Shown piece by piece: positions 5,262 to 58,899 of a stretch of 64,000 bases of DNA (position 1 is its first letter; each line of letters begins with the position of its first letter). Position numbers and translations under genes: made by a program. The notes under the pieces were generated by a model that was not told where the DNA came from, did not search any database, and saw nothing but the letters and a program-made list of their open reading frames with translations. Where the stretch lies: contig JADZCA010000013.1 of assembly GCA_020851795.1 (NCBI GenBank), forward strand, positions 7,428 to 71,427, given 5' to 3'. This DNA is from Planctomycetota bacterium. Lineage in GTDB: Bacteria > Planctomycetota > PLA2 > JAEUHO01.

Positions 5262-6649
<1,388 letters not shown>

Positions 6650-6653
<4 letters not shown>

Positions 6654-9064
6654 GTCGAACCCTCCACCGTCGGGAGCACCACCTCGAACGCCGCCCCGCC
6701 GCCCTCGCGAGCGAGTGCCCGCGCCGAGCCGCCGAACGCCTCGGTCCACGTGCGGACCACGTGGAGCCCGATGCCGAGGCCCTGCGTCGGCGCGCCGCCC
6801 GCCGACGGGCCGACGCGGAAGCGGTCGAAGAGCCGCGCCGCGTCCCCGGGCGGGAGCCCCGGGCCGCGGTCGAGGACCTCGATGCGCGCGCTGCGGGGCT
6901 CGGCGCGCGTCACGCGCACCTCCACGACCGACCCGGGCGGGGCGTGCTTCACCGCGTTGTCCACGAGGTTCTGCACGATCTGGAGCACGCCCTCGCGCCG
7001 TGCGAGCGCGGTCGGCGCGCCGTCCACGGCGAGCGCGAGACGCACGTCGCGGACCGCGGCGAGCGGAGCGAGCGCGGCGGCCGCGTCGCGGACCGCGGGG
7101 CCGAGCGCGACCGGCTCGAGCGGCGGCGGCGGCGCGCCCACCGCCATGCGGCTCGCGGTGAGCACGTTCTCGACGAGCGCTTGCAGCTGGCGCACGCCCG
7201 CGCGCGCGCCCTCGAGGTCGGCGGCCTGCGCGGGTGCGAGCGGGCCGGACAGACCGTCGAGCACGTTGTCGAGGCTCCACCGCACGGCGGTGAGCGGCGA
7301 GCGAAGGTCGTGCGCCACGCGCAGGAGGAAGTCGGTGCGCCGTCGGTCGAGGTCGGCGAGCGCCTCGCGCGAGGCCGCCTCGCGGGTCGCCTCGCGGACG
7401 AGCCGCAGGCGCTCGAACGCGGGGCCCGCGTGCTCGGCGAGGGCGGCGAGGCCTGCGAGCTCCTCCTCGAGCCAGTGGCGTCCGTCGCCCCGGGCCCCGA
7501 GCCACACGCTCGCGCGCAGCGCGCCGTCCACCACCACGGGCTGCACGACGGAGGCACGCAGGAGGTCGAGGGACGCGGTCGGGCGCTCGACCGAGGGGAC
7601 CGCGGTCGCGTCCGGGCGCGCGGTCGTCGCGCCGAGCCGCTGCGCGACGGCCGCGGCGTGCGCGGCCGAGGCGAGGTCGCCGTCGAAGCCGTGCACCGCG
7701 ACCGCGCGTTCGCCGGGGCGCTCCTCCACGACGACGGCGGCGGCGACGGGGCGCAGGGTCGCGCGCACGAAATCGAGCGTCTCCGCGGCCGCGGCGGACG
7801 GGTCGGCGGTGCGCGCGAGGCGCTCGCCCAGCGCGCGGAGCGCGTCACGTCGCGCTGCACCCACGCGGAAGAAGGTGCCGTCGGCGCGGCTCGCGACGGC
7901 CTTGCGCACGGGGCCGACGAGCATCCCCGCCAGCACGCCCGTCGCGAGCCACGTCACCGGGGACCGGGCCGCCGCGGGCCCGAACGCGACCGCGGTGGCG
8001 GCGAGGACGAGGCCGCCCGCCGACGCGCAGAGGGCCAGCGCGGTCGCCGTGTAGAGCGTGGCACGGCGCACCGCCACGTCGATCCCGAGCAGCCGGTGGC
8101 GCGCCGCGGCCACCGCGAACGCGGCGGGCGCGGCCAGCTCGACCGCGCGGTCGGCGACCGGCGGGATCGAGGGCTCGGTGCCGAGGAGCAGGCGCGGCAC
8201 GGCGCGCAGCAGCACGAACGGCACCGCGGCGACCCCGATGCCGCCGAGCAGCCACCGCGCCTGGGCCCGGCTCCGCGCCGAGGGGGACCGCCGCGCCCCC
8301 GTCGCGAGCACCACGCACCCGAGGCCCATCCCGAGCACCAGCAGCGCGAGCCCGACGGCCGTGGGGGCGCGCGTCGCGGCGAACGTCGCGGGCGACGGGG
8401 CGCCGAAGTAGCGGTGCCAGGCGAGCATCTGCGCTCCCGCCACCATGGCGGCCACCGCGGACGCCGCGCGCAGCGTCCACGGCCGTTGCGCCACCCAGCC
8501 CACCGGGTAGGGAAAGGAGACCGCGAGCGCGACGAAGGCGACGGGCAGCGCCGCGAGCACCGCGACGTAGGCGTGGGCCAACGCCTCTTCCACGCCGTCG
8601 CGCGCCGGGTAGACCCCGACGAGCGCGACCGCGAGGCCCCCGAGCACGAGGCAGCCGAAGACCCTCCGGGTCGCGGGGTCGCCCGCACGAGGGCCGACGA
8701 GCAGCGCCGCCAGGCCGCAGAACGCGAGCGCGCTGACGACGAGCAGCACGAGCTCGGGTCCGTCCACCTCGCGGCGCAGCACGACCTCGCGCGGGGTACC
8801 CAGGTCCACCGGGGTTCCGGGCCGCAGGCGCTGCACCTCGAAGGCGACCTGCTCCCAGCTCCCGGTCGCCACCCCGCCGACGGGCGAGGGGACCGGTCCG
8901 GAGCGCGCGAGGTCGGCGGGGAGCGCGCCGCGCGACGCCGCGCCGACGGAGCCCACGACGCTGAGGGCGAACGCGGCGGCGGCGGCGGCGAGCCACGGGA
9001 CCACGCGGGGCGTGGGCGAGCGCAGCGGACCCTCCGGCATCGTCGCCCTCATGGCGGGGGCCAT
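6650..9064 (-). CDS. sensor histidine kinase with a polytopic 7TM-type N-terminal sensor
   Basis: C-terminal HisKA (LRVAHDLRSPLTAV) and HATPase_c (QIVQNLVDNAVKHAP...GLGIGLHVV). N-terminal periplasmic segment and about 7 TM helices. ATG at 9064, after I removed an R-rich upstream extension. Confidence 0.8.
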
Positions 9065-9099
9065 GATGCCGGGACGGCCCTTGCGGGGGAACGGGGCGT

Positions 9100-9224
9100 C
9101 CTCGGTCGCGTCGTCGAGCCCGCCGAATCCGCGAAAGACGAGGCCCGTCGAGCGCCGATCGCACGTCAGGCCCCCGTCGGGGCTCGCGCATTCGGCCCGG
9201 GCGCGCGTCGGCCGCGACGACCGC
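9100..9224. repeat. MITE/REP-like intergenic repeat, copy A
   Basis: About 125 bp in the HK 5' region. Near-identical to 55158-55277, and reverse-complement match to 25592-25722. Core: gccgaat(c/t)c(g/a)cgaaagacgaggccc...cgtcggggctcgcg.attcggcccgggcgcgcgtcgg. Confidence 0.5.
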
Positions 9225-9543
9225 GTGTTCTGGTACCACGCCGAGGAGCGGACGACGCGTGGCGACGTGAGTCGAATCGCCGACGGGCCCTGGGCCACGC
9301 CCGGGCCGAAGACGCCGCCCCGACCTCGTCGGCTCGTGGATTCGGCGGGCTGGCGGATCGATCCGGTCGTCGGTGCGACCCTGTGGATCCACCCGACCGG
9401 CGGACGACGTCGGCGCACACGAGGCGCTCGCAGGCGCAGCGCCATGTTGCCCAAGGAGTTGCGTCCGTGCGGCCCTCGGGCGCGACGAGCGGCACGCGCC
9501 GTGATCTCCGCCTTCGGTACCCCCTTTCCCTGGAGGACCGACG

Positions 9544-10635
9544 ATGAGACGGCCGAAGTGGATTCCTGCGTGGCTCGGGTTCGCGCTCGCGGTCGTGGCC
9601 GCGGGGCTCCCCGGGTGCGGCGGCGGCGGCGCCTCGCGCGACCCGCGCGAGCTCCGCGTGATGACGCGCAACCTCTACCTCGGTGCCGAGCTCGGGCCCG
9701 TGATCGAGGCCGTCGCGGGGGGCGACCCCGACGGGATCGTGCTCGCGACTTCGGAGGCCTTCGCCGCGGTGGTCGCGACCGACTTCCCGACCCGGGCCGA
9801 AGCGATCGCCGACGAGATCGTCGCGGCGAGCCCCGACGTGGTCGGGCTCCAGGAGGCGGCGCTCTGGCGCGTGCAGTCGCCGTCGGACACGCTCGACCCG
9901 TCGCCGACGTCGGCGACCGACGTCGCCTACGACTTCGTCGCGCTGCTCCTCGACGCGCTGGCGCGTCGCGGCCTCGACTTCGTCGTCGTCGCGGAGGCCG
10001 TCGAGGCCGACGTCGAGCTGCCGGCGCTCGACGAGTCGATGAGCCTGATGGACGTGCGCTTCACCGACCGTGACGTCCTGCTCGCCCGCGGGGACCTCGT
10101 CGCGAACGGCGCGGTGTACGGCGGGTCCTCGGGCCTGTTCGACACCTTCCTCGACCTCGGCGGCGGGCTCGTCGTGCCGCGGGGCTGGGTCGCGGCCGAC
10201 GTCCGGGTCGCGGGGCGGACGGTGCGCGTCGTCTCGACCCACTTGGAGGACGCATCCGAGGACCTCCAGCGCGCGCAGGCGACCGAGCTGCTCGCGGGGC
10301 CGCTCGCCGGCGACGGGATGGCCGTCCTGCTCGGCGATCTCAACTCCGACGCGAACGCGCTGCCCCCGGGTGCGACCTACCTCGACGTCACGGCGGCCGG
10401 GTTCATCGACGCCTGGCTCGCTGCGGGCCACGGCGCCGGCACCGGCGCGACGTGGGGGCACGACGCAGCGCTGACCGACCCCGACGCGTCGCTCTCGCAG
10501 CGACTCGACCTCGTCCTCGTGCGCGGTGCGCTGTCGGTGCGGTCGGCGGACGTGCACGGCGACGACCCGGGTGACATGCAGGGCGGCCTGTGGCCGTCCG
10601 ACCATGCCGGTCTGTCGGTCGTGCTGCGCCGCTGA
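9544..10635 (+). CDS. endonuclease/exonuclease/phosphatase (EEP) family lipoprotein
   Basis: Signal peptide with lipobox (AAGLPGC). EEP-like motifs (VMTRNLY, GLQEA, LLGDLNSD, SDHAGL). GGAGG RBS 8 nt upstream. Confidence 0.7.
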   Translation: MRRPKWIPAWLGFALAVVAAGLPGCGGGGASRDPRELRVMTRNLYLGAELGPVIEAVAGGDPDGIVLATSEAFAAVVATDFPTRAEAIADEIVAASPDVVGLQEAALWRVQSPSDTLDPSPTSATDVAYDFVALLLDALARRGLDFVVVAEAVEADVELPALDESMSLMDVRFTDRDVLLARGDLVANGAVYGGSSGLFDTFLDLGGGLVVPRGWVAADVRVAGRTVRVVSTHLEDASEDLQRAQATELLAGPLAGDGMAVLLGDLNSDANALPPGATYLDVTAAGFIDAWLAAGHGAGTGATWGHDAALTDPDASLSQRLDLVLVRGALSVRSADVHGDDPGDMQGGLWPSDHAGLSVVLRR

Positions 10636-10688: not shown

Positions 10689-10786
10689 ACGCGTTCGACG
10701 GGCGGCGTCGCACCGTCGATGCACGCGTGACGACCGCGAGAAGACCCTCGCATCGTGGGGGTCGTCTCGTTTACGCTAGCCCGGTC

Positions 10787-11344
10787 ATGCCTCGCGTCAC
10801 GTCGGCAGTGCGTCCGCGCGTCTCCACCACGCAAGCGGCTCCCTCCCTCTCTCCCGTCGTCGGCGTGCTCCACACCGGCGGCGAGTTCGGCGTCGTCGCG
10901 CTGCGCGACGTCGAGCCCGGCGAGGTCCTGATGACCATCGAGGGCGAGCGCGTCGGAAAGCCCTCTCGCACCTCGGTGCAGGTGAGCGAGCGGGACCACA
11001 TCGACGTGCCGGCGGCGTGGACCTTCGAGGAGGTCCTCGCGCGCGCGCCGTGGCGCTTCCTCAACCACGCGTGCGCGCCGACCGCGTGGGTGCGCGGGCG
11101 TGAGGTCGTCGCGCTACGGCGGATGGCGCGCTTCGACGCCGTCACCTTCGACTACACGACGACGGAGGCCGCGATGGCCACGCCGTTCGTGTGCCGGTGC
11201 GGCGCCTGCGGCGGTCGCGAGATCCGGGGCTTCCTGCACCTCGAGGCCGACGAGCAGCGGCGGCGCCTCCCGCACCTCGCGCCGTGGCTGCGCGCGCGCG
11301 TCGAGGGCCCGAGCCCGCGCGTCCGAGGGTCCCGCGGCGGATGA
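10787..11344 (+). CDS. SET-domain protein (putative protein-lysine methyltransferase)
   Basis: GEFGVVALRDVEPGEVLMTIEGE (N-SET), RFLNHACAPTAW (NHxCxPN), VTFDY, and a post-SET Cys cluster CRCGACGG. The stop overlaps the next start (ATGA). Confidence 0.7.
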   Translation: MPRVTSAVRPRVSTTQAAPSLSPVVGVLHTGGEFGVVALRDVEPGEVLMTIEGERVGKPSRTSVQVSERDHIDVPAAWTFEEVLARAPWRFLNHACAPTAWVRGREVVALRRMARFDAVTFDYTTTEAAMATPFVCRCGACGGREIRGFLHLEADEQRRRLPHLAPWLRARVEGPSPRVRGSRGG

Positions 11345-14300
11345 CCTCCGCGCCGGACCGCGACCGCGGGGCCGGGCCGACGGACGAGCTCTCCGAGGAC
11401 GTCCTCCCGGCGGTCTTCGCACGCACGGTGCGACGGCACGCCGACCGCGTCGCGGTGGACGTCCCGCCCGGCGACGGCCGCCCTGCTCGCACGACGTGGA
11501 CGTACGCGCGGCTCGACGCGGCCGCGGCACGCCTCGCGGCGGCGCTCGCGCCGTGGGCGGGCGCGGACCGCGTCGTCGCGATCCACCTGCCGCGCCACGA
11601 CCCCACGCTGTTCGCCGCGCAGCTCGCGGTCAGCCGTGCCGGCGCGGCGTGGACCTGCGTGGACGCGTCGTTCCCGGAGGACCACCTCGCCCACGTGCTC
11701 GCCGACGCGAAGGCGGTCGCCGTGCTCACCGACGCCGCGGGGGCCGCACGGCCGGCGGTCGCAGGCTCCGGCGTCGCGGTCCTCGACGCCGCGTCGCTGC
11801 TGTCGGACGCGGCTCCGGCCGCGGCGTCGGCGCCGCGGGGCACCGGGCCGAGGCCGTCGTCGCTGGCCTACGTGATCTACACGTCGGGCACGACCGGCCG
11901 TCCCAAGGGCGTCGCGATCGAGCAGCGTTCGATCGTCAACCTCGTCCGCGGCGACCTCGCGGCGTTCGGGCTCGGTCCCGGGGACCGCGTCGCGCAGGGG
12001 TCGTCGGCCGCCTACGACTCGTCGGTGGAGGAGTCGTGGCTCGCGTTCGCGTCGGGGGCGACGCTGGTCGTCCTCGACGACACGACGGCGCGCCTCGGGC
12101 CCGACCTCGTGCCCTTCCTGCGCGAGGAGGGCGTGACCGTCTTCTGCCCGCCGCCGACGCAGCTGCGGGCGACGGGCTGCGAGGACCCGCGCGCGGCGCT
12201 GCCGGGCCTGCGGCTGCTCTACGTCGGCGGCGAGGCCCTGACGCCCGACGTCGTCGAGCGGTGGGCGCCGGGGCGGCGCCTCGTCAACGGCTACGGCCCG
12301 ACCGAGACCACCGTCACGTCGCTGCGCGGCGACGTCGTCGCGGGCGGCCCCGTGACGATCGGGCGCCCCGTCCCGGGGCTCGAGGCCTTCGTGCTCGACG
12401 AGCGCCTCGAGCCCGTGCCCGACGGCGAGCCCGGTGAGCTGTTCCTCGGCGGTGCGGGCCTCGCGCGCGGCTACCTCGGCAACGACGACCTCACCGCCGA
12501 GCGCTTCCCGACCCACCCGCGCCTCGGCCGGCTCTACCGCACCGGCGACCTCGTGCGCCGCGACGGCGGGGGCGACCACCACTACCTCGGGCGCATCGAC
12601 GCGCAGGTGAAGCTGCGCGGCCACCGCATCGAGCTGTCGGCCGTCGAGGCCGTGATCGCCGCGTGCCCCGGCGTCCGCGCCGTCGGGTGTCGCGTGCAGG
12701 GGAGCGGCGCCGCCGAGCTGCTGGCGGCGCACGTCGTCCCGACCGACCCCGCGGCCCCGCCGCGCGTGGACGAGCTCGAGGCGGCCGTGCGTGCCCGCCT
12801 GCCGAGCGCGGCCGTGCCCGGGCGGTGGGCGTGGCGCGACGCGCTCCCCCAGAACCGCAGCGGCAAGCTCGACCGCGCGGCGCTCCCCGAGCTCGCCGCG
12901 CCCGCGCGCCACGGGGCCCGCGCGCACGTCGCCCCGCGCGACGCGCAGGAGCGCCGCGTCGCGGCCGCGGTGCGCAGCGTCCTCGCGCTCGACGCCGACG
13001 TCTCGGTCGAGGACGACTTCTTCCTCGACCTCGGCGGCACGTCGCTCTCCGCCGCCGTCGTCGTCTCGACGCTGCGGCGTGACCCGGTGTCGGCCGCGGC
13101 GGCCGTGCGCGACGTGTACGAGGGACGCACCGTCGCGGGCATCGCGCGGCGGATCGGCGCCGGGCGCCCCGTCGTGGCGTCGGCGGCGGGGGGCGCCCCG
13201 GGGCCCGCGCCGGTCCCCGCGGCCGCGTCGGTCGGGACGGCCGCGGTGCAGACGCTGTGGCTCCTCGCCGGGCTCGTGCTCTCCTCGGCCGCCGTCGCGT
13301 GGGTCTGGCTCGTGCTCGCGCCCGCCGCGCTCGCCCGCTTCGGCATCGCGGGCACGATGCTCCTCGCGCCGCTGGCGGCGCTCCTGCTCCAGCTCGTGTG
13401 GTTCCCGGGCTCGGTGCTCGTCGTCGCGGCGGCCAAGCGCGTGCTCGTCGGTCGCTACCGCCCGATGCGGGCCCCGGCCGAGGGCGGGTTCGCGCTCCGG
13501 CACTGGCTCGTGACCTCGTTGGCGCGGGCGATCCCGTGGTCGTGGGTGAGCGACACGGTCCTCGTCGGCGTGGCGCTGCGGGCGCTCGGGGCCCGCGTCG
13601 GGGCGCGCGTGCACGTCCACCAGGGCGTGGACCTCACGCGCGGCGGGTGGGACCTGCTCACGTTGGGCGACGACGCCTCGCTCGGGATGGAGTCGTCGGT
13701 GCGCCTCGTCGAGGTCGAGGCGGGCCAGCTCGTCGTCGGGCCCGTCACGCTCGGGCGCGGGGCGACGCTCGACGTCCGGGCGGGAGCGGGCGCCGACACC
13801 GAGCTCGGCGACGGGGCCTACCTCGGGCCGCTCTCCTCGCTCGCGCCCGGGGCGCGCGTCCCGGCGGGCGAGGCGTGGGCGGGCGTCCCGGCGAGCCGCG
13901 TCGGCGACGCACCGCGGCCCGTCGTGGACGGCGGCGCCCGCGCGATGTCGCCCGCGGCGCACGCCGTCCTCACGCTCGCGCTGCGCTTCCTGCGGCCGGT
14001 CGTCGGCGCGTACGGGGCCCTCGTGGCCGTCGTCGCGTGGTGGTGCGCGCGCAGCGGCTTCGACGGCGACGCGCTGATCGCGCTGCTCGCGCACCCCACG
14101 CCGTCGGCGACGGTGGGGGCGCTCGCGCTCCTCTACGCCGCGTCGGTGCCGGTGGGGCTCGTCGCGGCCGCGGTGGGCCTGCGGCTCGTCGGCCGCGTGC
14201 GGCCGGGCACGTGGTCGCGCTGGAGCGTCGCCTACCTGCGCATCCTCGCCAAGACCGAGACCGTGCGCCGCGCGGGCGACCTCCTCGCGGGCACGATGCT

Positions 14301-15351
14301 CTGGCCGCTGTGGCTGACGATGGCGGGGATGCGCGCGGGCCGCCGCTGCGAGGTGAGCACGGTCGAGGAGGTCGTCCCCGAGCTGGTCGAGGTGGGGGGC
14401 GGCTCGTTCCTCACCGACGGCATCTACCTCGGCCCGCCGCGCGTCGTCGCCGGCACGGTGACCGTCGCGGCGACGAGGCTCGGCGCACGCAGCTTCGTCG
14501 GCAACCACGTGGTCGTCCCGCCGGGGACGCAGCTGCCCGACGACGTGCTGCTGGGCGTCTCGACCTTGGCCGACGGGCGCATGCCCGCCGGCACCTCGTG
14601 GTTCGGCCACCCCGCGTTCGAGCTGCCGCGCCGCGAGGTCGTCGTCGCCGACGAACGGCTCACCCACCGTCCCGGCTTCGTCCGTTGGACGACGCGCCTG
14701 CTGTGGGAGCTCGCGCGCTTCCTCATCCCTGCGGGCAACGCGGCGGTGCTCCTCGCGTGGGCCGCGGGGCTGTCCGCGGCGGCCACCGCCTGGCACGGGC
14801 CCGCGCTCTGGTTCGTCGCCGCGCCGGCGCTCGGCTTCCTCGCCGCGGCCGTGCCCTGCGCGTGGGTGGTGGCGGCGAAGTGGCTGCTGCTCGGGCGCGT
14901 GCGGCCCGGCCAGCGCGGCTTCTGGTCGTGCTGGGCGAGCCGGTGGGACTTCCACTACGTGCTGTGGCAGGAGCACGCGCGGCGCGCGCTCTCGCACCTC
15001 GAGGGGACGCCCTGGCTCGCGTGGTACCTGCGCGCGATGGGGTGTCGCATCGGCCGTGGCGTGACGCTCGGGCCGGGCTTCGCACAGGTCGTGGACCCCG
15101 ACATGTTCGACCTCGAGGACGGCGTCACGATGAACGCCTACGTCCAGGCGCACAGCTTCGAGGACCGCGTCCTCAAGCTCGACCGCGTCCACGTCCGGCG
15201 CGGGGCGACGGTGGGGAGCCAGGCGCTGCTGCTCTACGGGGCCGACGTGGGGGAGGGCACGACCGTCGCCCCGCACAGCGTCGTCATGAAGCACGAGCGC
15301 CTGCTGGCGGGGCGTGCCTACGCGGGCGTCCCCACGCAGGCCACCGGCTGA
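11341..15351 (+). CDS. Pls-like single-module NRPS (homopoly-amino-acid synthetase architecture)
   Basis: A-domain cores: YTSGTTGRPKGV (A3), YDSS (A4), NGYGPTE (A5), YRTGD (A7), GRIDAQVKLRGHRIELSAVE (A8), NRSGKLD (A10). PCP motif FFLDLGGTSLSA. Then three TM pairs separating three hexapeptide/LbH-like soluble domains. Confidence 0.75.
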   Translation: MTSAPDRDRGAGPTDELSEDVLPAVFARTVRRHADRVAVDVPPGDGRPARTTWTYARLDAAAARLAAALAPWAGADRVVAIHLPRHDPTLFAAQLAVSRAGAAWTCVDASFPEDHLAHVLADAKAVAVLTDAAGAARPAVAGSGVAVLDAASLLSDAAPAAASAPRGTGPRPSSLAYVIYTSGTTGRPKGVAIEQRSIVNLVRGDLAAFGLGPGDRVAQGSSAAYDSSVEESWLAFASGATLVVLDDTTARLGPDLVPFLREEGVTVFCPPPTQLRATGCEDPRAALPGLRLLYVGGEALTPDVVERWAPGRRLVNGYGPTETTVTSLRGDVVAGGPVTIGRPVPGLEAFVLDERLEPVPDGEPGELFLGGAGLARGYLGNDDLTAERFPTHPRLGRLYRTGDLVRRDGGGDHHYLGRIDAQVKLRGHRIELSAVEAVIAACPGVRAVGCRVQGSGAAELLAAHVVPTDPAAPPRVDELEAAVRARLPSAAVPGRWAWRDALPQNRSGKLDRAALPELAAPARHGARAHVAPRDAQERRVAAAVRSVLALDADVSVEDDFFLDLGGTSLSAAVVVSTLRRDPVSAAAAVRDVYEGRTVAGIARRIGAGRPVVASAAGGAPGPAPVPAAASVGTAAVQTLWLLAGLVLSSAAVAWVWLVLAPAALARFGIAGTMLLAPLAALLLQLVWFPGSVLVVAAAKRVLVGRYRPMRAPAEGGFALRHWLVTSLARAIPWSWVSDTVLVGVALRALGARVGARVHVHQGVDLTRGGWDLLTLGDDASLGMESSVRLVEVEAGQLVVGPVTLGRGATLDVRAGAGADTELGDGAYLGPLSSLAPGARVPAGEAWAGVPASRVGDAPRPVVDGGARAMSPAAHAVLTLALRFLRPVVGAYGALVAVVAWWCARSGFDGDALIALLAHPTPSATVGALALLYAASVPVGLVAAAVGLRLVGRVRPGTWSRWSVAYLRILAKTETVRRAGDLLAGTMLWPLWLTMAGMRAGRRCEVSTVEEVVPELVEVGGGSFLTDGIYLGPPRVVAGTVTVAATRLGARSFVGNHVVVPPGTQLPDDVLLGVSTLADGRMPAGTSWFGHPAFELPRREVVVADERLTHRPGFVRWTTRLLWELARFLIPAGNAAVLLAWAAGLSAAATAWHGPALWFVAAPALGFLAAAVPCAWVVAAKWLLLGRVRPGQRGFWSCWASRWDFHYVLWQEHARRALSHLEGTPWLAWYLRAMGCRIGRGVTLGPGFAQVVDPDMFDLEDGVTMNAYVQAHSFEDRVLKLDRVHVRRGATVGSQALLLYGADVGEGTTVAPHSVVMKHERLLAGRAYAGVPTQATG

Positions 15352-32916: not shown

Positions 32917-35093
32917 GGGAGGTTGCTCCGGCGCCGCAGCACCCACTCGGCGAGCAGGCACGCGACCATCGCGAGGAGCCACCACGGCCCCTCGTAGACG
33001 AGCGACCGCTCGCGGGTGCGCGGCGCCTGCGGGGCCGACGCGGCCAGCCGTGCGGACAGCTCGGCCAGCGCCGTCGGCGGGACCACCGCGCCGCCGCTGG
33101 CCGCGGCGATCGCGGCGAGGCGCGCCGGGTCGGCGACCGGCTCCTCGCCCTCGCGTGCCTCGCCCGTCGTGCGCAGGAGCACCTCGCGCACCGCGGCGGG
33201 TGCGCCCGGCAGCGACGCGGTGACGCGCACGCGCACCGGTTCGTCGCCGTCCACCGCGACGTCGGCGGTGAAGGTGCCCGGCGCGTCGGCGACCGCGCGC
33301 AGCGCCACGGGCCCCGCGTCCTTGCCGTCGAGCGCGAGCCGACGCGCCTCGACCGAGGCGTCGGCCCGCGGGGTCCGGTCGGGGCCCCGCACCGTCGCGG
33401 TGACGCGGGCGACGTCGCCCTTCGCGTAGCGGGCGCGGTCGGTGGCGAGGGAGAGCCCCTCGCGCTCGGCCGCGCGGGAGGCGAGCCAGCGCAGCCCTTG
33501 GCGGAGCAGCGCGCCGTACGCGGCGGGGGCCGTGGCCTGCATCCGGTGCAGCGTGTTCGTCAGCCACAAGAGCGTCCGGCCACGGGCCGCGGAGCCGGCG
33601 ACGAGCAGCGGCCGGGGCGGGCCGTCGCCCGCCCGCGTCGCAAGCAGCGTCGTCGCGCCCGGGCGCAGCGCGCCCACGCGGTGCAGGCTCGCCACGGAGA
33701 CGCCGTCGGCGGCGAGCGCGTCGTCGAGCCCTTCGAGCACGGGGTGGGCCCGCCCCTCCGCGGTGCGCTCGGCGCGCAAGGCCCCGGTGGTCATCCCCTC
33801 GTCGGCCGCGCGCGCCACGACGGGCAGGACGCGCGCGAGCGGCCGGCCCTCCCAGCCGCCGCTGCCGAGCGCGTCGTCGTCGCCGATCACGAGGAGCCCG
33901 CCGCCCTCCTCGACGAACGCGAGCAGCGCCGCCTCCTCGGCCGACGCCACGTCGGCCGCGCGCGTCCCCACCAGCACGACGACGTCGAAACGCGAGAGCG
34001 CCGCCGCGTCGGCGGGGAAGCCGGTCGCGAGCGGGTCGCCGGCCGCGATGCCGTCGGTGAGCACCTTGCCCGGCGCGAGCCGCAGCACGGACGCGAAGGT
34101 GAGCCCCGGCGTGCGCGCGACCTCCGCGCGCAGCGGGCGGTACTCGCGCGTCACCCGGGCCGCGAGCAGGAGCACGCGCAGCGACGGGTCCTCGGCCAGC
34201 ACGAACGCGCGCCGACGGTCGTCGGCCGCGACCCGGTCGCGCGCGACGGGGCCCACCCGGGCCTCGAGCACGTGCGCGCCCGCGGCGTCGAGGCGCACGT
34301 CGAAGCGCGCCACGCCGCGGCCGCGGCCGTCGAGGGCCACGGTCTTCGCGCCGAGGGCCTCGCCGCCGCGCGAGAGCGACACGGACGGCGCGCGGTGGCG
34401 CTCGCGGAACGCGACGCTGCCCGTCACGGCGACCTCGACCTCGACCGCGACGGTCGTGTGCAGGTCGGCTCGCTCGGGCGCGCGGAGCGCGACGACGCGC
34501 GCGTCGTCGACGAGGTCGAGGTCGGTCCCCAGCGGCACCGCGAGCACCGGGCAGGGGAGGCGCGGGGTCGTCGGGGCCACGGTGTCGATCCCGTCGCTGG
34601 CGAGCACGATCGCGACGGGTGGTTCGGCCGCGTCGGCGCCCGCGCGCGCGAGCGCCGCGCCGAGGTCGGTGCCCTCGCCGGCGGCGGTCAGCGTGTCGGC
34701 CGTGCCCGCCGTCGCCGCGGCCGAGGCGAAGGTGGTCGCCTCGACCGCGAAGACGCCGTCGAGCCGCTCGCGCACCTCGCGGACGACGGCCTTCGCGTCG
34801 TCCGAGCGGGTCCCGCGGCGCCCGTCGGGCACGGCCATCGACGCCGAGTCGTCCACGAGGAGCCGCACGCGCGGGCGCCGCTCGGCCGGCACGGCGGACA
34901 CGACGGTCGGGTTGGCGAACGCGAGCAGCAGCAGCGTCACCGCGGCCACGCGCAGCGCGATCATCGGGCGCGCGGCGCGGCCCACGCCGAGCGCGAGGAG
35001 GCGGCGCACGCCCACGACGACGGCCGCGGCCGCCACGGCGAGCGCGAGGAGGCCGACGGTCGGCGCGACGGGCGGGGCGAAGTGCAGGCTCAT
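32913..35093 (-). CDS. VWA-domain membrane protein (BatB-like)
   Basis: N-terminal double TM. MIDAS motif LLVDDSASM. C-terminal TM. ATGA overlap with the upstream gene. Confidence 0.7.
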   Translation of the reverse strand: MSLHFAPPVAPTVGLLALAVAAAAVVVGVRRLLALGVGRAARPMIALRVAAVTLLLLAFANPTVVSAVPAERRPRVRLLVDDSASMAVPDGRRGTRSDDAKAVVREVRERLDGVFAVEATTFASAAATAGTADTLTAAGEGTDLGAALARAGADAAEPPVAIVLASDGIDTVAPTTPRLPCPVLAVPLGTDLDLVDDARVVALRAPERADLHTTVAVEVEVAVTGSVAFRERHRAPSVSLSRGGEALGAKTVALDGRGRGVARFDVRLDAAGAHVLEARVGPVARDRVAADDRRRAFVLAEDPSLRVLLLAARVTREYRPLRAEVARTPGLTFASVLRLAPGKVLTDGIAAGDPLATGFPADAAALSRFDVVVLVGTRAADVASAEEAALLAFVEEGGGLLVIGDDDALGSGGWEGRPLARVLPVVARAADEGMTTGALRAERTAEGRAHPVLEGLDDALAADGVSVASLHRVGALRPGATTLLATRAGDGPPRPLLVAGSAARGRTLLWLTNTLHRMQATAPAAYGALLRQGLRWLASRAAEREGLSLATDRARYAKGDVARVTATVRGPDRTPRADASVEARRLALDGKDAGPVALRAVADAPGTFTADVAVDGDEPVRVRVTASLPGAPAAVREVLLRTTGEAREGEEPVADPARLAAIAAASGGAVVPPTALAELSARLAASAPQAPRTRERSLVYEGPWWLLAMVACLLAEWVLRRRSNLP

Positions 35094-37108
35094 GCGGCGT
35101 GCGCTCCGCGGCCGGAGAGCTCGGCCTGCGTGGCCGTCGAGAGGCGCCGTCGCGCGAGGTTGCCGAGCGCCGTCTCGGAAAGGAGCGCGACGCAGGCGAG
35201 CACGAGGAGCCAGCCCGTCAGGTCGCGCGGCGCGCCGCGCGACAGCGTCGCCTCGACGTCCTGCGGCGCCACGACCGTCGCGCCGGGCAGCCGCGCCTCC
35301 CACGCCGCGGGCGTGGCCCGGCGGCCCGTCGCCTCGGCGAGGTCGGCGTCCACCGAGAACGCCGCGTCGGCCCGCTCGAGGTCGTACAGCCCCGCGCGCA
35401 GCACCGGACGCGGTGCCGTGCCGTCGCCGGCCACGCACGCCGGGCGCTCGACCCCGCCGCGGGCGAGCAGCGGGAGGGTGCCGTGGAGCCACGCGAGGAA
35501 GGTGGGCCGCAGGGCGAAGGCGGTGGACGTCGGCTCGAGCGGGGTCGCGAGCAGGAGCGCGTGCGCCGGGCGCCCGCTCCCGCGCAGGAGCACCGGCCGG
35601 CCGCCCGCCTCCATCAACACGACCGCGTCCGCGCGCGTCGCCACCTCGACGGCGTCCTTGACGACGACGCCCTCGAGCCGCGCGCGTCCCTCCGAGGCGA
35701 GGCCGACGAGCGTCGGGTCGGCGGGCGCGACGACGGCGAGCGCGGCGGCCGGCGGCGGCTCGACCGCCCGCGGCGGCACCACGCGCGCCGGCAGCGCGTC
35801 GTCGAGCGGAGCCGGGACGGCGCGCGCGGCCCTGGCGGCACGCGGGCCCGCGACGACGAGCAGGCCGGCGCCCTCGGCGTGGCGGGCGAGCACGGCCGCC
35901 GCGACCGCGTCGGGGAGGTCGGGGGCGTCGTGGACGAGCACGAGGTCGGCGGTGCGCACGAGCGCGGCGTCCGCGTCGGAGGCGCGCACGCGCGTCACGT
36001 GGACGCCCGACACCGTGCCGTCGCCCGTCGGGTCGGCCGCGAGCGCGAGCAGCGCGCCACCCGACAAGGGCGAGGCCCCGCCCGCCTCCTCGAGCGCGCC
36101 GTCGAGGAGCAGGGCCTCGAGGCGCGGTCGCACGACGACGACGAGGTGGCGACGGTCGTCGGGGGCGAAGTCGTCGGCGGGGACCGAGGCGGTCAGGCCC
36201 GTCGGCCCGGCCACGGTCGGCGGGACGGAGAAGGTCGTCTCGCCGGTCCCCGCCGCGGACAGCGCGACGTCGGCGCGTCGCGGCGCGTCCGTGCCGAAGA
36301 CGAGCTCGACGGGGACGGAGGACGCCGCCCCGGCCCGGCGCTCGACGGCGACGGTGACCGCGACCGGGCGCCCGACGGTGACCGGCCCGCTGCCGACCGC
36401 GAGCCGGACGACCGCGACGTCGTTCCCGGCCGGTGGCGCCGTCGCCGCGACGACGACGACGCGCGTGCCCGGCGGCAGCGCACGGGCCGCCGCCTCGAGG
36501 TCGGGGTCGTCGAGCGCGGCGGCGTCGAGGTCGGTGGTGACGACGAGGCGACGGTCGGGCGAGGTGCCGCGCGCGAGCGCGGCCCCGGCCCGGCGCAGCG
36601 CGGCGGCGAGCGAACCGCGCGCGTCGGTGCGCTCGGCGGCCTCGAGGGCGCGCAGGAGCGCGCGCGCGTCCTGCGAGAGCCCCTCGGCCGGCGCCGCGGG
36701 CCCCGCGACGACCCGGTGCAGCGCCCCGCGGTCGCCCGGGCCCATGCGCTCGAGGACCGCGCGCGCCGCCGCGACGCCGCGCGACCACGCCCCGTCGGCC
36801 CCGCCGACGGCCGTCGAGGCGGAGTCGTCCACCACGACGACCGTGTCCGACGACGCGGGGCCCGCGGCGCCGCCGACGCTCGGGCGCGCGAGCGCCAGCA
36901 CCGCGAGCGCCACCGCGGCCGTGCGCAGCGCGAGCAGGACGAGCTCGTGCAGGCGGCGGCGGCGGGCGAGGTGGGGGTCCACCTTGCGCAGGAGCCGCAG
37001 CGACGGGAAGACGACGACCTTCGTGCGTCGCCGGAAGAGGAGGTGCACGAGCACCGGGAGCGCCGCGAGCGCGAGGAAGGGCAGCAGGGCGGGGTTGGCC
37101 ACGCCCAC
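35090..37108 (-). CDS. VWA-domain membrane protein (BatA-like, BatA N-terminal double-TM domain)
   Basis: ANPALLPFLALAALPVLVHLLFRRR N-terminus. MIDAS VVVVDDSAST. C-terminal TM. GTG candidates at 37102, 37108 and 37114 (37114 overlaps the DUF58 stop). Confidence 0.7.
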   Translation of the reverse strand: MGVANPALLPFLALAALPVLVHLLFRRRTKVVVFPSLRLLRKVDPHLARRRRLHELVLLALRTAAVALAVLALARPSVGGAAGPASSDTVVVVDDSASTAVGGADGAWSRGVAAARAVLERMGPGDRGALHRVVAGPAAPAEGLSQDARALLRALEAAERTDARGSLAAALRRAGAALARGTSPDRRLVVTTDLDAAALDDPDLEAAARALPPGTRVVVVAATAPPAGNDVAVVRLAVGSGPVTVGRPVAVTVAVERRAGAASSVPVELVFGTDAPRRADVALSAAGTGETTFSVPPTVAGPTGLTASVPADDFAPDDRRHLVVVVRPRLEALLLDGALEEAGGASPLSGGALLALAADPTGDGTVSGVHVTRVRASDADAALVRTADLVLVHDAPDLPDAVAAAVLARHAEGAGLLVVAGPRAARAARAVPAPLDDALPARVVPPRAVEPPPAAALAVVAPADPTLVGLASEGRARLEGVVVKDAVEVATRADAVVLMEAGGRPVLLRGSGRPAHALLLATPLEPTSTAFALRPTFLAWLHGTLPLLARGGVERPACVAGDGTAPRPVLRAGLYDLERADAAFSVDADLAEATGRRATPAAWEARLPGATVVAPQDVEATLSRGAPRDLTGWLLVLACVALLSETALGNLARRRLSTATQAELSGRGAHAA

Positions 37109-37110
37109 CG

Positions 37111-38012
37111 TCACCGTCCGATCCGCGTGCGCGCGTGGACGAAGCGGGCGAGCTCGGTCGCGAACGGCCGCGAGGTCGAGAGGACGCGGTGCTCGACGCA
37201 CGCCTCGGCCGTGACGCGCCCGAGGCCCCGCAGCCAGGCGGCGACGGCGTCACGGTAGGCGTCGCGGACGGTGCCGGCCTCGACGGGGAGGCGCTCGCCC
37301 GTCTCGGCGTCCTCGAGCTCGACGAGGCCGTGCCAGGGGAGGTCGGTCTCGGCGTCGTCGAGCACCTGCAGGACGGTGACGTCGTGGCGGTCGTGGCGCA
37401 GCCGGCGCAGCCCGTGCGCGACGTCGTCGGGGTCGTCGTGCAGGTCGGAGACCAGCACGACGACGCTGCGCCGGCGCAGCCGTGTCGCGACGGCGCGCAG
37501 CGCGTTGCCCACGCCCGTCGTCCCGTCGGGCTCGAAGGCCTCCAGCGTCTCGAGCGCCTCGCGCACCGCCGTCGGCGAGCCGCGGGCGGGGAGCACGCGG
37601 TCCACCCGGTCGCCGAAGACGACGAGGCCCGCCGCGTCGCGCTGGCGGTGGAGCAGGTAGACGAGCCCGCCGGCCAGCGAGCAGGCGTACGCCCACTTGG
37701 TGGGGCGGTCGTCGGCCCCGCGGAACGCCATCGACGCGCTGCGGTCCACGAGCACGAAGGCCTGGAGGTTGGTCTCGTCCTCGTACTGGCGCACGACGCG
37801 GCGGTCCGCGCGCGCGAGCACGCGGAAGTCGAGGAAGCGCACCGGGTCGCCGGGCACGTACTCGCGGTACTCGGCGAACTCCACGGACGCGCCCTTGTGG
37901 CGCGAGCGGTGCAGCCCGGCGATCCGCCCCTCGACGGGCCCGCGCGGCGACAGCACGAGGCCGTCGAGGGCCTCCTGCGTCGCGGGCGTCAGGTAGCGGA
38001 ACGCGCGGCCGC

Positions 38013-38016
<4 letters not shown>
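37111..38016 (-). CDS. DUF58-family protein (MoxR partner)
   Basis: VLVDRSASM-like motif and DUF58 topology. ATGA overlap with the MoxR stop. Confidence 0.7.
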
Positions 38017-39470
<1,454 letters not shown>

Positions 39471-39473
39471 GGG

Positions 39474-47064: not shown

Positions 47065-48659
47065 GCCCGGTCCCGACGCCGCCCGTCGCGCCGCCCGACG
47101 CGCCCGGGGCGCGGGAGGGGGCGGGGCGTCGCGTCCGCGTTGCGCTCCTGCTTGCGCTCGTCGTCGCGGTCGTCGCCCACGTCCGCGGCGCCGGCGAGCA
47201 CCCCAACAACCAGGACCGCGAGCTCGACCTCCTGCTCGCGCGGCGGATCGTCGCCGAGGGCGTGTGGACCGACGGGTGCCGCAGCCCGCTGTTCCCGCTC
47301 TGCCTCGCGCCGGTCGCGGGCGCGGACGCGGGCTTCGCGCAGCGGGCGCGATGGGTGGGCCTCGCCACCGGCGCGCTCGCCTTCGCGGTCGTCTTCCTCG
47401 CGCTCGCGCGCCTCGCCTCGGAGCGGACGGCGCTCGTCGCGGCGCTCGCGCTCGGCCCCGAGTGGACCTTCCAGGTCTCGCGCCTGCGGGGCGAGCCGCT
47501 CGCGGCCGCGCTCGTCGTCCTGTGCGCGGCCTGCCTCGCGACGAGGCGGGCGGCGGCCCGCCCGTGGCGCGCGGCGTTCCTGGCCGGCGCGTTCGCCGGC
47601 GCGTCGCACCTCGCCAAGGGGAGCGGGCCGCTGACGCTGCTCGCCGCGTCGGCGGTGGTCGTCGTGCAGGACCGCCGGCGCGCCCTGGCGCCGGTCGCGT
47701 TGCTCGTCGCGGGGTTCGTGGTCGTCGCCGCGCCGCTGCTCGTGGACACGGCCCGGCGCTTCGGGTCGCCGTTCTTCAACGCGAACACCGCCCACGTGAT
47801 GTGGGAGGCGGCCGGCGAGGACCAGCAGTGGCGCTGGAGCACCGCGACCCCCGCGTCGTGGTGGGCCGCGCACGGGCTGGCGGGCACGCTCGAGCGCCTC
47901 GGGCGCGGGCTCCTCGTCGTCACGCACGGGCCGCTGCTGTGGGCGACGCTCGCGGCCGCCGCGGCGCTCTGGTGGGCGCGCCGTCGGGGCGGGGCGACGA
48001 CCGTGCCCGACGGCGCGGCCGCGTTCGTGGGCGTGACGGCCGCGTTCGTGCTGGCCTGGCTGCCACCGTTCGCGTGGTACGTGCCGATCGCGAACGGGCG
48101 TCGCTACCTGTTCCCCGTCGTCGCGGCCGCCGTGCCCGCGCTCGTCCTCGTCGTCGAGGCCGCGCTCCGCGCCCGCGCGGCGCGCGCCGCCGCGGCCGTG
48201 GACGCGGTCGGTGCGCGCCTGCTCGCCGTGCTCGCGTCGCCGGTGGCCCTCGTCGCCGCCGTCGTCGCGCTCGCCGCCGCCGACGTCGTCGAGTCGAGGT
48301 CGCCGCCGCGACCGGGGCCGCGGGTGCCGTTCGACGAGGCGACGCTCGCGGTCGCGTCGCGCCTGCGCGCGCTGCCCGAGGGCACGCGCGTGCTCGCCGG
48401 GCCGTCCGCGACGGTCCCGTCGCCCTGGCTCGTCTACCCCGCGGCGACGTACGTCCACCTGCCGAGCGGCCTCCCGCCCGCGCAGGCGGAGGCGTGGGTG
48501 CGCGGGCACGCCGACGTCGTGCTGTGGTCGCGCGGGCTCGCCACACGCCGGCCGCAGCCCTTCTCGGCGTGGGCCGACGGGACGACGCCGCCGTGGGCGG
48601 ACCCCGTCAGCCCGGCCGACGCGACGGGCCCGCTCCGCCTCTACCGGGTCGTGCCGTAG
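47061..48659 (+). CDS. polytopic membrane protein (ArnT/PMT-like GT-C fold suspected)
   Basis: GTG at 47061 overlaps the TraB stop (GTGA). About 11 TM helices plus a C-terminal periplasmic domain. Confidence 0.5.
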   Translation: MSPVPTPPVAPPDAPGAREGAGRRVRVALLLALVVAVVAHVRGAGEHPNNQDRELDLLLARRIVAEGVWTDGCRSPLFPLCLAPVAGADAGFAQRARWVGLATGALAFAVVFLALARLASERTALVAALALGPEWTFQVSRLRGEPLAAALVVLCAACLATRRAAARPWRAAFLAGAFAGASHLAKGSGPLTLLAASAVVVVQDRRRALAPVALLVAGFVVVAAPLLVDTARRFGSPFFNANTAHVMWEAAGEDQQWRWSTATPASWWAAHGLAGTLERLGRGLLVVTHGPLLWATLAAAAALWWARRRGGATTVPDGAAAFVGVTAAFVLAWLPPFAWYVPIANGRRYLFPVVAAAVPALVLVVEAALRARAARAAAAVDAVGARLLAVLASPVALVAAVVALAAADVVESRSPPRPGPRVPFDEATLAVASRLRALPEGTRVLAGPSATVPSPWLVYPAATYVHLPSGLPPAQAEAWVRGHADVVLWSRGLATRRPQPFSAWADGTTPPWADPVSPADATGPLRLYRVVP

Positions 48660-48702
48660 CGTAGGATCGCGCGCGGGCCGCCGGCCCGTCGGAGGGCGCA
48701 CC

Positions 48703-57106: not shown

Positions 57107-58804
57107 CTAGAACAGCCCGACGATCTCGCCGCGCTCGTCGAGGTCCACGTTCTCGAGGCCCGGGCGGCTGCCGAGCCCCGGCATCGTCTTCATCTCGCCG
57201 CACAGCGGGTAGAGGAAGCCCGCGCCGGCGGAGAGGCGCACCTCGCGCACCGGCAGGCGGAAGCCGGTCGGGCGGCCCTTGCGCTCCGGGTCGGCGGTGA
57301 GCGAGAGGTGGGTCTTCGCCATGCAGATCGGCAGGCCGCCGTAGCCGAGCTTCTCGTAGCGCGCGACGTCGGCGCTCGCCTGCTCGGACCAGTCCACGCC
57401 GTCGGCGCCGTACATGCGGCGGGCGATCGTCTCGACCTTCTCCTTCACCGGCGCCTCGAGCGGGTAGAGGAAGCGGAACTTGCCGCCGCCCTTCTCGCAC
57501 GCCGCGTCCACCGCGGAGGCGAGCGCGCGGCCGCCCTCGCCGCCCTTGCCGAAGACCTCGGAGACCTCGGCGGCGAACGCGCCGGCGCCGAGCGCGCGCT
57601 TGCGGACGAAGTCGTGCTCGCGGTCGGTGTCGCTCGGGAACCGGTTCACCGCGACGACGGCGGGCAGCCCGTGGATGCGGACGTTCTCGATCTGCTTCTC
57701 GAGGTTGCCGATGCCCGCCTCGATCGCGTCGAGGTCCTCGCGCTCGAGCGCGGGGTCGAGCGGCTTGCCGGGGACGATCTTGAAGCGGCCGCTGTGCATC
57801 TTGAGCGCGCGGACCGTCGTGACGACGACCGCGGCGGACGGGACGAGGCCCGACGCGCGGCACTTGATGTTGAAGAACTTCTCGCAGCCGATGTCGGCGC
57901 CGAAGCCGGCCTCGGTCACGACGTAGTCGGCGAGCTTGAGCGCGATCCGGTCGGCGACGATCGACGAGTTGCCGTGCGCGATGTTGGCGAACGGGCCGGC
58001 GTGCACGAAGCACGGCGTCCCCTCCGTCGTCTGCATCAGCGTCGGCTTGATCGCCTCGCGCAGGATGACGGCGGCGGCGCCCGCGCACTTCGTCGCGTCG
58101 GCGGTGACCGCCGTGCCGTCGGGGCGGTAGCCGAGGATCACGCGGCCGATGCGCTTGCGCATGTCCACGACGCCGTCGGCCAGCGCGAGGATCGCCATCA
58201 GCTCGCTCGCCACCGCGATGTCGAAGCCGGTGCGGCGCGGGACCCCGTTCTCGTCGCCGCCGAGCCCGACGAGGATGTCGCGGAGCACGCGGTCGTTGAT
58301 GTCCACGACCCGCCGCCACGAGACGCGCGCGGGGTCGAAGCCGAAGCGGTTCTTGAGCAGGATCGACGCGTCCACGTGCGCGGCGATCAGGTTGTGCGCC
58401 GCCGAGACCGCGTGGATGTCGCCCGTGAGGTGGAGGTTGAACTCCTCCATCGGGACGACCTGGCTCCACCCGCCGCCCGCCGCACCGCCCTTGATCCCGA
58501 ACAGCGGGCCCATCGAGGGCTGGCGCAGGCAGGTGAACACCTTCTTGCCGAGGCGCCCGAGGCCGAGCGACGTGCCGATCGTGTGGACCGTCTTGCCCTC
58601 GCCGAGCGGGGTCGGCGTGACGGCGGTCACGACGATGTAGCGCCCCTGCGGGCGGTCCTTGAGGCGGTCGATCGCCGACAGCGACACCTTCGCCTTGTGG
58701 TGCCCGTACGGCTCGACCTCGGCCGGCAGCAGCCCGGCCTTGGCGGCGATCGCGCCGATGGGCTTGAGGGGGACGGAGCGCGCGATCTCGAGGTCGTTCT
58801 TCAT
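57107..58804 (-). CDS. fhs: formate--tetrahydrofolate ligase
   Basis: Full-length 565 aa. PTPLGEGKTV P-loop and typical Fhs N- and C-termini. Confidence 0.95.
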   Translation of the reverse strand: MKNDLEIARSVPLKPIGAIAAKAGLLPAEVEPYGHHKAKVSLSAIDRLKDRPQGRYIVVTAVTPTPLGEGKTVHTIGTSLGLGRLGKKVFTCLRQPSMGPLFGIKGGAAGGGWSQVVPMEEFNLHLTGDIHAVSAAHNLIAAHVDASILLKNRFGFDPARVSWRRVVDINDRVLRDILVGLGGDENGVPRRTGFDIAVASELMAILALADGVVDMRKRIGRVILGYRPDGTAVTADATKCAGAAAVILREAIKPTLMQTTEGTPCFVHAGPFANIAHGNSSIVADRIALKLADYVVTEAGFGADIGCEKFFNIKCRASGLVPSAAVVVTTVRALKMHSGRFKIVPGKPLDPALEREDLDAIEAGIGNLEKQIENVRIHGLPAVVAVNRFPSDTDREHDFVRKRALGAGAFAAEVSEVFGKGGEGGRALASAVDAACEKGGGKFRFLYPLEAPVKEKVETIARRMYGADGVDWSEQASADVARYEKLGYGGLPICMAKTHLSLTADPERKGRPTGFRLPVREVRLSAGAGFLYPLCGEMKTMPGLGSRPGLENVDLDERGEIVGLF

Positions 58805-58820
58805 GGGGGGGGATGGACCG

Positions 58821-58851
58821 CCGCCCGCCCGGAACGAGCCCGGGCGGGCGG
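58821..58851 (-). terminator. 12-bp GC hairpin about 50 nt after the DUF11 lipoprotein stop
   Basis: ccgcccgcccgg / aacgagc / ccgggcgggcgg. Confidence 0.4.
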
Positions 58852-58899
58852 GAGGACGCGGGACGGGGATCGGCGCGCGGGGCCCGCGGCCCCGGCGCG

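Follow-up and report, generated by a model that had tools for sequence, protein, structure and literature searches.

A planctomycete synthetase of the Pls/PosA type with the DSECYGGVTK pocket and an overlapping SET-domain methyltransferase gene

Six bacterial cationic homo-poly-amino-acids were known before delta-poly-ornithine, and several such polymers, epsilon-poly-lysine foremost, serve as preservatives, antimicrobials and cell-delivery agents. The synthetase Pls of Streptomyces albulus (BAG68864.1; adenylation domain, 7WEW) joins an adenylation (A) domain and a carrier (T) domain to a C terminus with six transmembrane (TM) helices and three segments, and has no condensation (C) or thioesterase (TE) domain; PosA of Acinetobacter baumannii (ATY43264.1) is encoded by a single-gene operon (PMC10522769). 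The paper on PosA (Patel et al., Commun Biol 2023, PMC10522769) tabulates the ten-residue codes of the family as DAESIGTVVK for Pls (Lys), DMEHNGTVSK for PosA (Orn), DFECLSAVTK for L-2,4-diaminobutyrate (L-Dab), DFECLSCVSK for D-Dab, DFEYVGTVTK for 2,3-diaminopropionate (Dap) and DGESVSVVNK for beta-Lys, and lists D S E C Y G G V T K as an 'uncharacterised pocket' of two proteins from Bdellovibrionales (OFZ39577.1) and Novosphingobium (WP_072382105.1). Here we analyse a synthetase gene with this last code, located at 11341-15351 on the forward strand of a 64,000-nucleotide stretch of DNA from a Planctomycetota bacterium, which we call the window. An earlier note on this DNA had read part of the A domain as pointing to a basic amino acid substrate and had guessed a product of the poly-Lys, poly-Orn or poly-Dab type. 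We propose, with middling confidence, that the enzyme is a cationic polymer synthetase of the Pls/PosA type acting on a long cationic L-amino acid, for which L-arginine is the best candidate, and that it is coupled to a SET-domain methyltransferase of the BurB type.

Architecture and corrected specificity code of the synthetase

The synthetase gene lies within an open reading frame (ORF) at 11191-15351 (+), whose third-position G+C content (GC3) is 0.96 where overall G+C is 76-80%, and likely begins at the ATG at 11341, giving 1336 aa plus stop. The predicted protein agrees at every residue with NCBI MCC7137355.1, which comes from a metagenome-assembled genome (MAG) and is annotated as 'amino acid adenylation domain-containing protein [Planctomycetota bacterium]'. 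Its Pfam content consists of AMP-binding, AMP-binding_C, PP-binding and Hexapep only, and the same scan found no canonical C or TE domain in the synthetase. The A domain (aa 26-509; 11416-12867, +), which ends at the A10 lysine, matches Pfam AMP-binding (E=2.2e-72) and AMP-binding_C and passes the TIGR01733 model of amino-acid adenylation with 362.4 bits against a cut-off of 317.4. Its sequence matches in the PDB include LgrA, Pls_A 7WEW, GrsA 1AMU and ApnA_A1, and it is related to the A domain of Pls at E=2.9e-67. The flagged stretch at 11980-12300 corresponds to the A4-A5 region of this domain; because AMP-binding and TIGR01733 match, the latter above its cut-off, and the C-terminal model TIGR02353 aligns end to end, it belongs to a genuine A domain and is no chance resemblance. 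The synthetase is collinear with PosA over residues 1-1331 with 29% identity (E=6e-138, using a PosA sequence derived by optical character recognition, OCR). The single-module gene is thus delimited by its translation, GC3, domain matches and collinearity with PosA, and by architecture the enzyme is of the Pls/PosA type. Homologs are named only 'amino acid adenylation domain-containing protein' in the source annotations, and neither these annotations nor the NCBI family model recognise the proteins as Pls/PosA-type.

For the residue assignment, we used GrsA numbering, which is safe because the GrsA fragment was first verified to be identical to residues 231-452 of 1AMU. The window protein was aligned with this fragment, PosA and 120 homologs by MAFFT together with motif-anchored extraction, and the codons were read directly. 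The specificity code is D-S-E-C-Y-G-G-V-T-K. The nine pocket residues fall within 12016-12318 (+) and are D235 (Asp226, 12016-12018), S236 (Ser227, 12019-12021), E239 (Glu230, 12028-12030), C278 (Cys269, 12145-12147), Y299 (Tyr294, 12220-12222), G301 (Gly296, 12226-12228), G322 (Gly317, 12289-12291), V330 (Val325, 12313-12315) and T331 (Thr326, 12316-12318), as placed by the alignment to GrsA and PosA. The tenth position, K517, is Lys509 (12865-12867, +) in the A10 motif SGKLDR, and G508-K509 are invariant in a 16-sequence alignment. The spacings between code positions equal those of GrsA (43 residues from 235 to 278, 23 from 299 to 322, and 8 from 322 to 330); the only insertion or deletion relative to GrsA among them is four additional residues between 278 and 299. 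The verified alignment bears out the Y-D235-S236-S-V-E239 reading of the earlier note and its Cys at position 278. Its placement of 'TTV299-T-S301' after NGYGPTE was wrong, as these residues are T328-T329-V330-T331-S332; the true residues 299 and 301 are the Tyr and Gly of 'LLYVGGE' upstream of NGYGPTE, and positions 330 and 331 fall just past 12300, where the note had ended the region. The alignment gave neither another residue at 239 nor a hydrophobic code. Adjacent to the pocket, GrsA position 328 is Thr319 (12304-12306) in the window protein and Cys in 39/40 homologs with, and 32/36 without, the SET gene described below (NGYGPTE-C-TVT).

Position 239 was taken in the earlier note as a mark of Lys-activating domains. 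The acidic residue is indeed present and is one half of the D235/E239 cation-binding pair conserved in the family, with PosA E221 and Pls E217 as the equivalents of E239 (PMC10522769; PMC11253843). Asp235 binds the alpha-amine and Glu239 the side-chain cation, and mutating either abolishes PosA activity (PMC10522769). This pair, together with the code match described below, supports a basic amino acid substrate. However, an acidic residue at 239 marks a cationic substrate without separating Lys from Arg, because the equivalent Glu orients arginine in ApnA_A1 of the anabaenopeptin synthetase (PDB 4D4G-4D57). In this Arg/Tyr-activating domain, E204 and S243 orient L-Arg (PMC11253843). The Glu lies four residues after the Asp that binds the alpha-amine, and the two residues would map to 239 and 278 by their 39-residue spacing, which suggests that E239 suits not only lysine or ornithine but also arginine. 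ApnA_A1 differs from the window domain in belonging to an ordinary multimodular nonribosomal peptide synthetase and in having Ser, not Cys, at 278.

The remainder of the pocket argues, as far as its residues can tell, for a substrate larger than lysine. Position 236 tracks the substrate's chain length, with Phe for Dap and Dab, Met for Orn and Ala for Lys (PMC10522769). The window pocket has Ser at 236, Gly at 301 and 322, and Tyr at 299; Ser236, Gly301 and Gly322 together would make it roomier. Ser256 and Thr301 of Pls, equivalent to positions 278 and 322, add to the hold on the epsilon-amine (PMC11253843). These two hydrogen-bonding residues are replaced by Cys and Gly in the window pocket. 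The T322 of PosA is likewise replaced by Gly, and its second hydrogen-bonding residue, S331, by Thr, which keeps the hydroxyl. The enzyme is neither a Pls nor a PosA in the strict sense, since the window code agrees with the lysine code and with the ornithine code at 5/10 positions each, D235, E239 and K517 being among those shared with Pls; the earlier note was right that the code is not identical to known Pls codes.

The window code is, by contrast, 10/10 identical to the published 'uncharacterised pocket' code, and OFZ39577.1 and WP_072382105.1 also have the same architecture as the window enzyme. The local motifs YDSS(V/I/L)EE, TV(F/I)CPPPT, L(L/V)YVGGE and NGYGPTE(C/T)TVT are common to them, as far as the OCR-damaged DNA of the assayed Bdellovibrionales protein is readable. 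The isolated A domain of that protein, Bdello_A, is the only part that was assayed, and a SET partner is unmentioned in the paper (PMC10522769). It gave rates of ~3.1 with L-Arg, 0.66 with L-Lys and 0.29 with L-Orn, of at most 0.12 with Dab, Dap and beta-Lys, and of 0.09 with citrulline, against a blank of 0.06; arginine was thus preferred ~5-fold over Lys and >10-fold over Orn, Dab and Dap, and citrulline, a neutral isostere, was not accepted (PMC10522769). The authors concluded that Bdello_A activates L-arginine and left room for 'a larger analog' suited to polymerisation as its true substrate (PMC10522769). Bdello_A is ~52% identical to the window A domain over the recoverable segments, an approximate value stitched from OCR-damaged, codon-optimised DNA, and this is the typical distance among members of the clade. 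The arginine preference of this same-code domain comes from the literature, and from it we infer arginine as the candidate physiological substrate of the window enzyme. L-arginine, or a similarly long cationic amino acid, would be the best-supported reading by this comparison and a better one than poly-Lys, poly-Orn or poly-Dab.

We therefore had to weigh this reading against the guess of the earlier note, namely that the domain activates L-lysine, L-ornithine or Dab and that the product is epsilon-poly-lysine, delta-poly-ornithine or poly-Dab. D235 and E239 are common to all known cationic homo-poly-amino-acid synthetases, Bdello_A is weakly active with L-Lys (~0.66 versus the blank of 0.06), and 6/10 code positions are shared with the Dab and Dap codes. 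However, no characterised code matches at more than 4 to 6/10 positions, position 236 is Ser and not the Ala, Met or Phe of the Lys, Orn and Dab/Dap enzymes, the residues that hydrogen-bond the epsilon-amine in Pls are Cys and Gly here, and the same-code domain disfavours lysine, ornithine, Dab and Dap by the factors given above. With the code matching that of an Arg-preferring domain at every position, the guess is unsupported, and we give it only a slim chance.

Breadth of the clade and the SET-domain partner

The pocket is conserved over a wide range of bacteria. Of the 120 closest database homologs, 110 share all of the first nine code positions, at an overall identity of only ~50-55%. When codes were extracted from genome loci (GTDB) by an alignment anchored on the A3 motif, the nine-residue code was identical in 67/77 loci, and a 31-position extended pocket signature was nearly invariant across them. 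A scan of one genome per species found a relative in at least 565 species genomes. Cultured carriers of a relative include Kutzneria, Lentzea, Amycolatopsis, Actinoplanes, Actinocrispum, Streptomyces and Gemmata, and MAG carriers include many Planctomycetota, Blastocatellia, Verrucomicrobiota and Sphingomonadaceae. Judged from its code, the window protein belongs to the published but unsolved DSECYGGVTK group and not to the lysine or ornithine enzymes.

Directly upstream of the synthetase lies a gene for a SET-domain methyltransferase of 185 aa (10787-11344, +; Pfam SET, PF00856, 25.9 bits against a gathering threshold of 22.4). Its TGA stop (11342-11344) overlaps the ATG of the synthetase at 11341 as ATGA, an arrangement by which the two genes are predicted to be translationally coupled. 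The product is identical to NCBI MCC7137354.1, 'SET domain-containing protein', and its accession is consecutive with that of the synthetase; both belong to a 75.6-kb contig of the MAG. The predicted structure has a mean confidence (pLDDT, predicted local distance difference test) of 88.7, and the invariant residues of the protein are N93-H94-x-C96 of the NH-x-C motif, the catalytic-site tyrosine Y123, T125-T126-E127 and C136-x-C138, the last forming the post-SET Cys cluster. A terminator-like hairpin at 10743-10763 (+), between the preceding Exo_endo_phos gene and the SET gene, is a weak hint that SET and synthetase form their own transcription unit; it is a pattern match from a consensus scan, which gave 2 sites against 0.4 expected in shuffles.

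We searched the other loci for SET homologs with a hidden Markov model built from tblastn hits. A homolog was found at 40/82 loci from several phyla, and in each case it immediately precedes the synthetase on its strand. In 39 of these 40, the distance from the SET stop to a synthetase start codon is between -17 and +50 nt, and 11 have the identical 4-nt overlap. Reverse look-ups starting from two SET homologs (L083 7001-7483; L084 3460-3981) both landed beside a Pls-like gene, again with a 4-nt overlap. All-against-all clustering of the flanking ORFs identified SET as the sole conserved neighbour and found no dedicated precursor-biosynthesis gene conserved near the synthetase, which fits a primary metabolite as substrate. 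In a neighbour-joining tree, SET-positive loci are scattered over the whole clade and include every actinomycete, and this spread suggests an old association of SET and synthetase with several losses. The literature search found no link between SET proteins and Pls-type enzymes, and the SET-synthetase operon and its breadth are unreported in the literature as far as searched. To our knowledge, there is no SET gene beside pls.

Fold comparison (E=3e-9) and sequence profile (E=8.7e-17) agree on BurB of Burkholderia thailandensis (PDB 9L4T/9L4V) as the best PDB match of the SET protein, with histone methyltransferases close behind in the profile search (2e-11). BurB is likewise a small stand-alone bacterial SET protein and shares the C-terminal motif DY-x-(S/T)TE-x5-F-x-C-x-CG-x2-C-x5-G, at an identity of about 23-25% and TM-scores of 0.56-0.65. 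It converts free L-methionine into S-methylmethionine, the first step towards dimethylsulfoniopropionate (DMSP) (PMC12542666), and in Burkholderia DMSP is loaded onto a thiotemplate assembly line (PMC7496086). BurB sits in the DMSP/malleicyprol pathway with BurI, BurD and BurE, which are absent at the window locus. What the SET enzyme of the window methylates is probably the amino acid, an intermediate bound to the carrier, or the product.

This partner raises an alternative for the substrate itself: the co-transcribed SET enzyme could make the true substrate, a methylated amino acid with a permanent or strong positive charge, arginine being a mere in vitro surrogate. S-methylmethionine, N-epsilon-methylated lysine and methyl-arginine are candidates. 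The overlap of the SET gene with the synthetase start, the tight spacing at nearly all SET-positive loci and the outcome of both reverse look-ups speak in its favour, as does the fact that BurB, the closest solved relative, makes a sulfonium amino acid on the way to the thiotemplate-loaded DMSP. A pocket that lacks the S278 and T322 hydrogen bonds of Pls and gains Tyr299 would also suit an onium head group. However, half of the loci have no SET gene within +/-8 kb and yet show the same code and a near-identical 31-position pocket, which weighs against a methylated substrate because an obligatory precursor-supplying enzyme is expected to co-occur. In addition, S-methylmethionine and trimethyl-lysine lack a side-chain nucleophile for isopeptide polymerisation. 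We consider this alternative rather unlikely. The preferred reading, in which the substrate is arginine or a similar primary metabolite, fits the identical pocket at loci that have no SET gene next to the synthetase; SET would then have a regulatory, on-line or tailoring role.

A subclade with the variant code DSE(C/A/S)HGDV(T/V) was also observed, in which 299 is His and 322 an extra acidic Asp. Its members are mostly Gemmataceae/Isosphaeraceae-like (loci L008, L025, L032, L037, L044, L048, L054 and L063, from Gemmataceae, Singulisphaera, some Planctomycetota and Opitutales), and one of them, L032, has Ala and not Glu at 239. No adjacent SET gene was found at any of these eight loci. Judged from the pocket residues, this subclade may use a different substrate.

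Carrier domain, membrane domain and the proposed reaction

The T domain (12955-13155, +; Pfam PP-binding, 32.6 bits against 20.8) carries the phosphopantetheine serine Ser568 (13042-13044) in the motif DLGGTS, and G566 and S568 are invariant across the 16-sequence alignment. It is followed by a membrane domain of the polymerisation type with ~700 residues (13246-15333, +), which was delimited by TIGR02353, hydropathy, AlphaFold and Foldseek. Hydropathy places the TM helices in three pairs (approximately aa 638-660 and 676-698, 880-900 and 925-947, and 1125-1147 and 1157-1179), with three left-handed beta-helix segments between the TM pairs. TIGR02353 (NRPS_term_dom) aligns over residues 636-1331 with 2-694 of its 695 model positions (E=2.9e-116). 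In the AlphaFold model of residues 621-1336 (pLDDT 86.8; predicted template-modelling score, pTM, 0.88), a unit made of a helical hairpin and a subsequent beta-helix occurs three times. Self-BLAST detected no internal repeat in the C-terminal part, so that the threefold repeat is visible only in the hydropathy and the model. In Foldseek, the beta-helix parts match hexapeptide-repeat acyltransferases (galactoside and maltose O-acetyltransferases and serine acetyltransferase), and none of the matches is a solved structure spanning the whole C-terminal domain; the literature search gave no cryo-EM structure of Pls.

Hexapeptide acyltransferases normally work as trimers that take an acyl group off a pantetheine thioester and pass it to a hydroxyl or an amine. 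Judged from the predicted structure, a pseudo-trimer of the three tandem segments plausibly carries out acyl transfer with the carrier-bound aminoacyl thioester, an idea that the authors of the PosA study had proposed from their own model (PMC10522769). Under the preferred reading, the A domain would turn a long cationic L-amino acid, L-arginine being the best-supported candidate and the only one backed by experiment, into the acyl-adenylate, and the amino acid would then be loaded onto the phosphopantetheine arm at Ser568. The C-terminal domain would transfer the aminoacyl group from the thioester to the amine of a free acceptor, either a monomer or the growing chain, and repetition of the cycle would yield cationic oligomers or polymers at the membrane. 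The SET enzyme, which depends on S-adenosylmethionine, would methylate something along this path.

The same fold leaves room for an enzyme that makes no homopolymer, in which the beta-helix domain would transfer the activated cationic amino acid just once to another acceptor, for instance a small amine or part of the envelope, and so modify it in a housekeeping role. Structural matches of the C-terminal model are O- and N-acyltransferases, enzymes that move acyl groups from pantetheine thioesters to diverse acceptors, and the domain stays below the curated TIGR02353 cut-off for Pls/PosA. Moreover, the breadth of the clade, with an invariant pocket across at least 565 species and many phyla, would point to a conserved physiological function rather than a niche antibiotic, and the homologs P0053 and P0115 carry an extra DUF1624/DUF418 membrane acyltransferase-like C terminus. 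On the other hand, the synthetase is collinear with PosA from end to end, has the same plan of six TM helices and three segments as enzymes shown to polymerise, and shares the third-segment motif QAH(T/S)FEDR, which recurs in PosA as QTHLFEDR (Q-x-H-x-FEDR). We regard a single transfer as very unlikely.

The extra C-terminal region of ~350 aa occurs in some Planctomycetota synthetases, namely P0053 (Tepidisphaera, 1706 aa) and P0115 (1669 aa), and long synthetase ORFs are also found at loci L015, L020, L023, L066 and L078. Its precomputed Pfam matches are PF07786 and PF04235, which we take to be DUF1624 (of the transmembrane acetyltransferase type) and DUF418, and they suggest a fused second membrane acyltransferase.

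Several points weigh against a polymer synthetase for arginine. The TIGR02353 score of 389.5 bits lies below the NCBI curated cut-off of 423.1. The arginine result comes from one in vitro assay on a homolog that is ~50% identical, and homoarginine, S-methylmethionine and the methylated forms of lysine and arginine were absent from the substrate panel used for Bdello_A. The guanidino group is a poor nucleophile, and an isopeptide polymer of arginine is therefore chemically awkward. No product has been reported for any member of the clade in the literature searched, and the search for poly-arginine or an Arg-activating Pls-like enzyme gave nothing beyond PMC10522769. Finally, the conserved SET partner hints at a methylated substrate or product.

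Genomic surroundings and meaning for the family

The other neighbours of the synthetase in the window (Exo_endo_phos, a P-loop protein, an aldo-keto reductase and a sigma-54 two-component pair) are not conserved across the loci, and we exclude them from the system for this reason. The Exo_endo_phos family gene (9544-10635, +) stands just before the SET gene, and further upstream, on the opposite strand, are a sigma-54-dependent response regulator and a histidine kinase of 882 aa (5262-9298, -). At 35090-39473 (-) lie the genes for an aerotolerance-type BatA protein and for a MoxR-like AAA_3 ATPase whose N terminus carries FHA and YscD-like domains; the FHA-MoxR fusion is unusual. A large HerA/DUF87-like ATPase (48037-51177, +), formate-tetrahydrofolate ligase (57107-59044, -; 810 bits), a DUF11/CARDB surface-repeat protein (58900-61386, -) and a SpoIIE-type phosphatase (61853-64000, -) appear to be ordinary chromosomal context, unlinked to the synthetase. 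The G+C content of the window is 73-80% throughout, and no tRNA gene or Rfam family at gathering score was found within its 64 kb.

The window enzyme belongs to a clade of the same type as the known polymer synthetases that is large, spans Planctomycetota, Acidobacteriota, Verrucomicrobiota, Actinomycetota and Proteobacteria among other phyla, has a different and almost invariant pocket, and is without a reported product in the literature searched. The question of this product is directly testable, as the corrected code points to an arginine-like cation, no precursor genes are conserved, and a BurB-like methyltransferase is the sole conserved partner. The cassette is carried by cultured strains such as Kutzneria buriramensis DSM 45791, Lentzea terrae and Actinocrispum wychmicini DSM 45934, and Gemmata sp. 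IIL30, whose SET-less homolog has a variant pocket code, is a possible comparator. We assign a rather small chance to the reading that the cassette of BurB-like SET enzyme and Pls-like synthetase makes an undescribed cationic biopolymer. In its boldest version, SET would turn a common amino acid into one with an onium or methyl-ammonium group, for example S-methylmethionine or methylated lysine, and the synthetase would activate and oligomerise it. If this is true, the clade would represent polymer chemistry outside the Lys/Orn/Dab/Dap/beta-Lys series.

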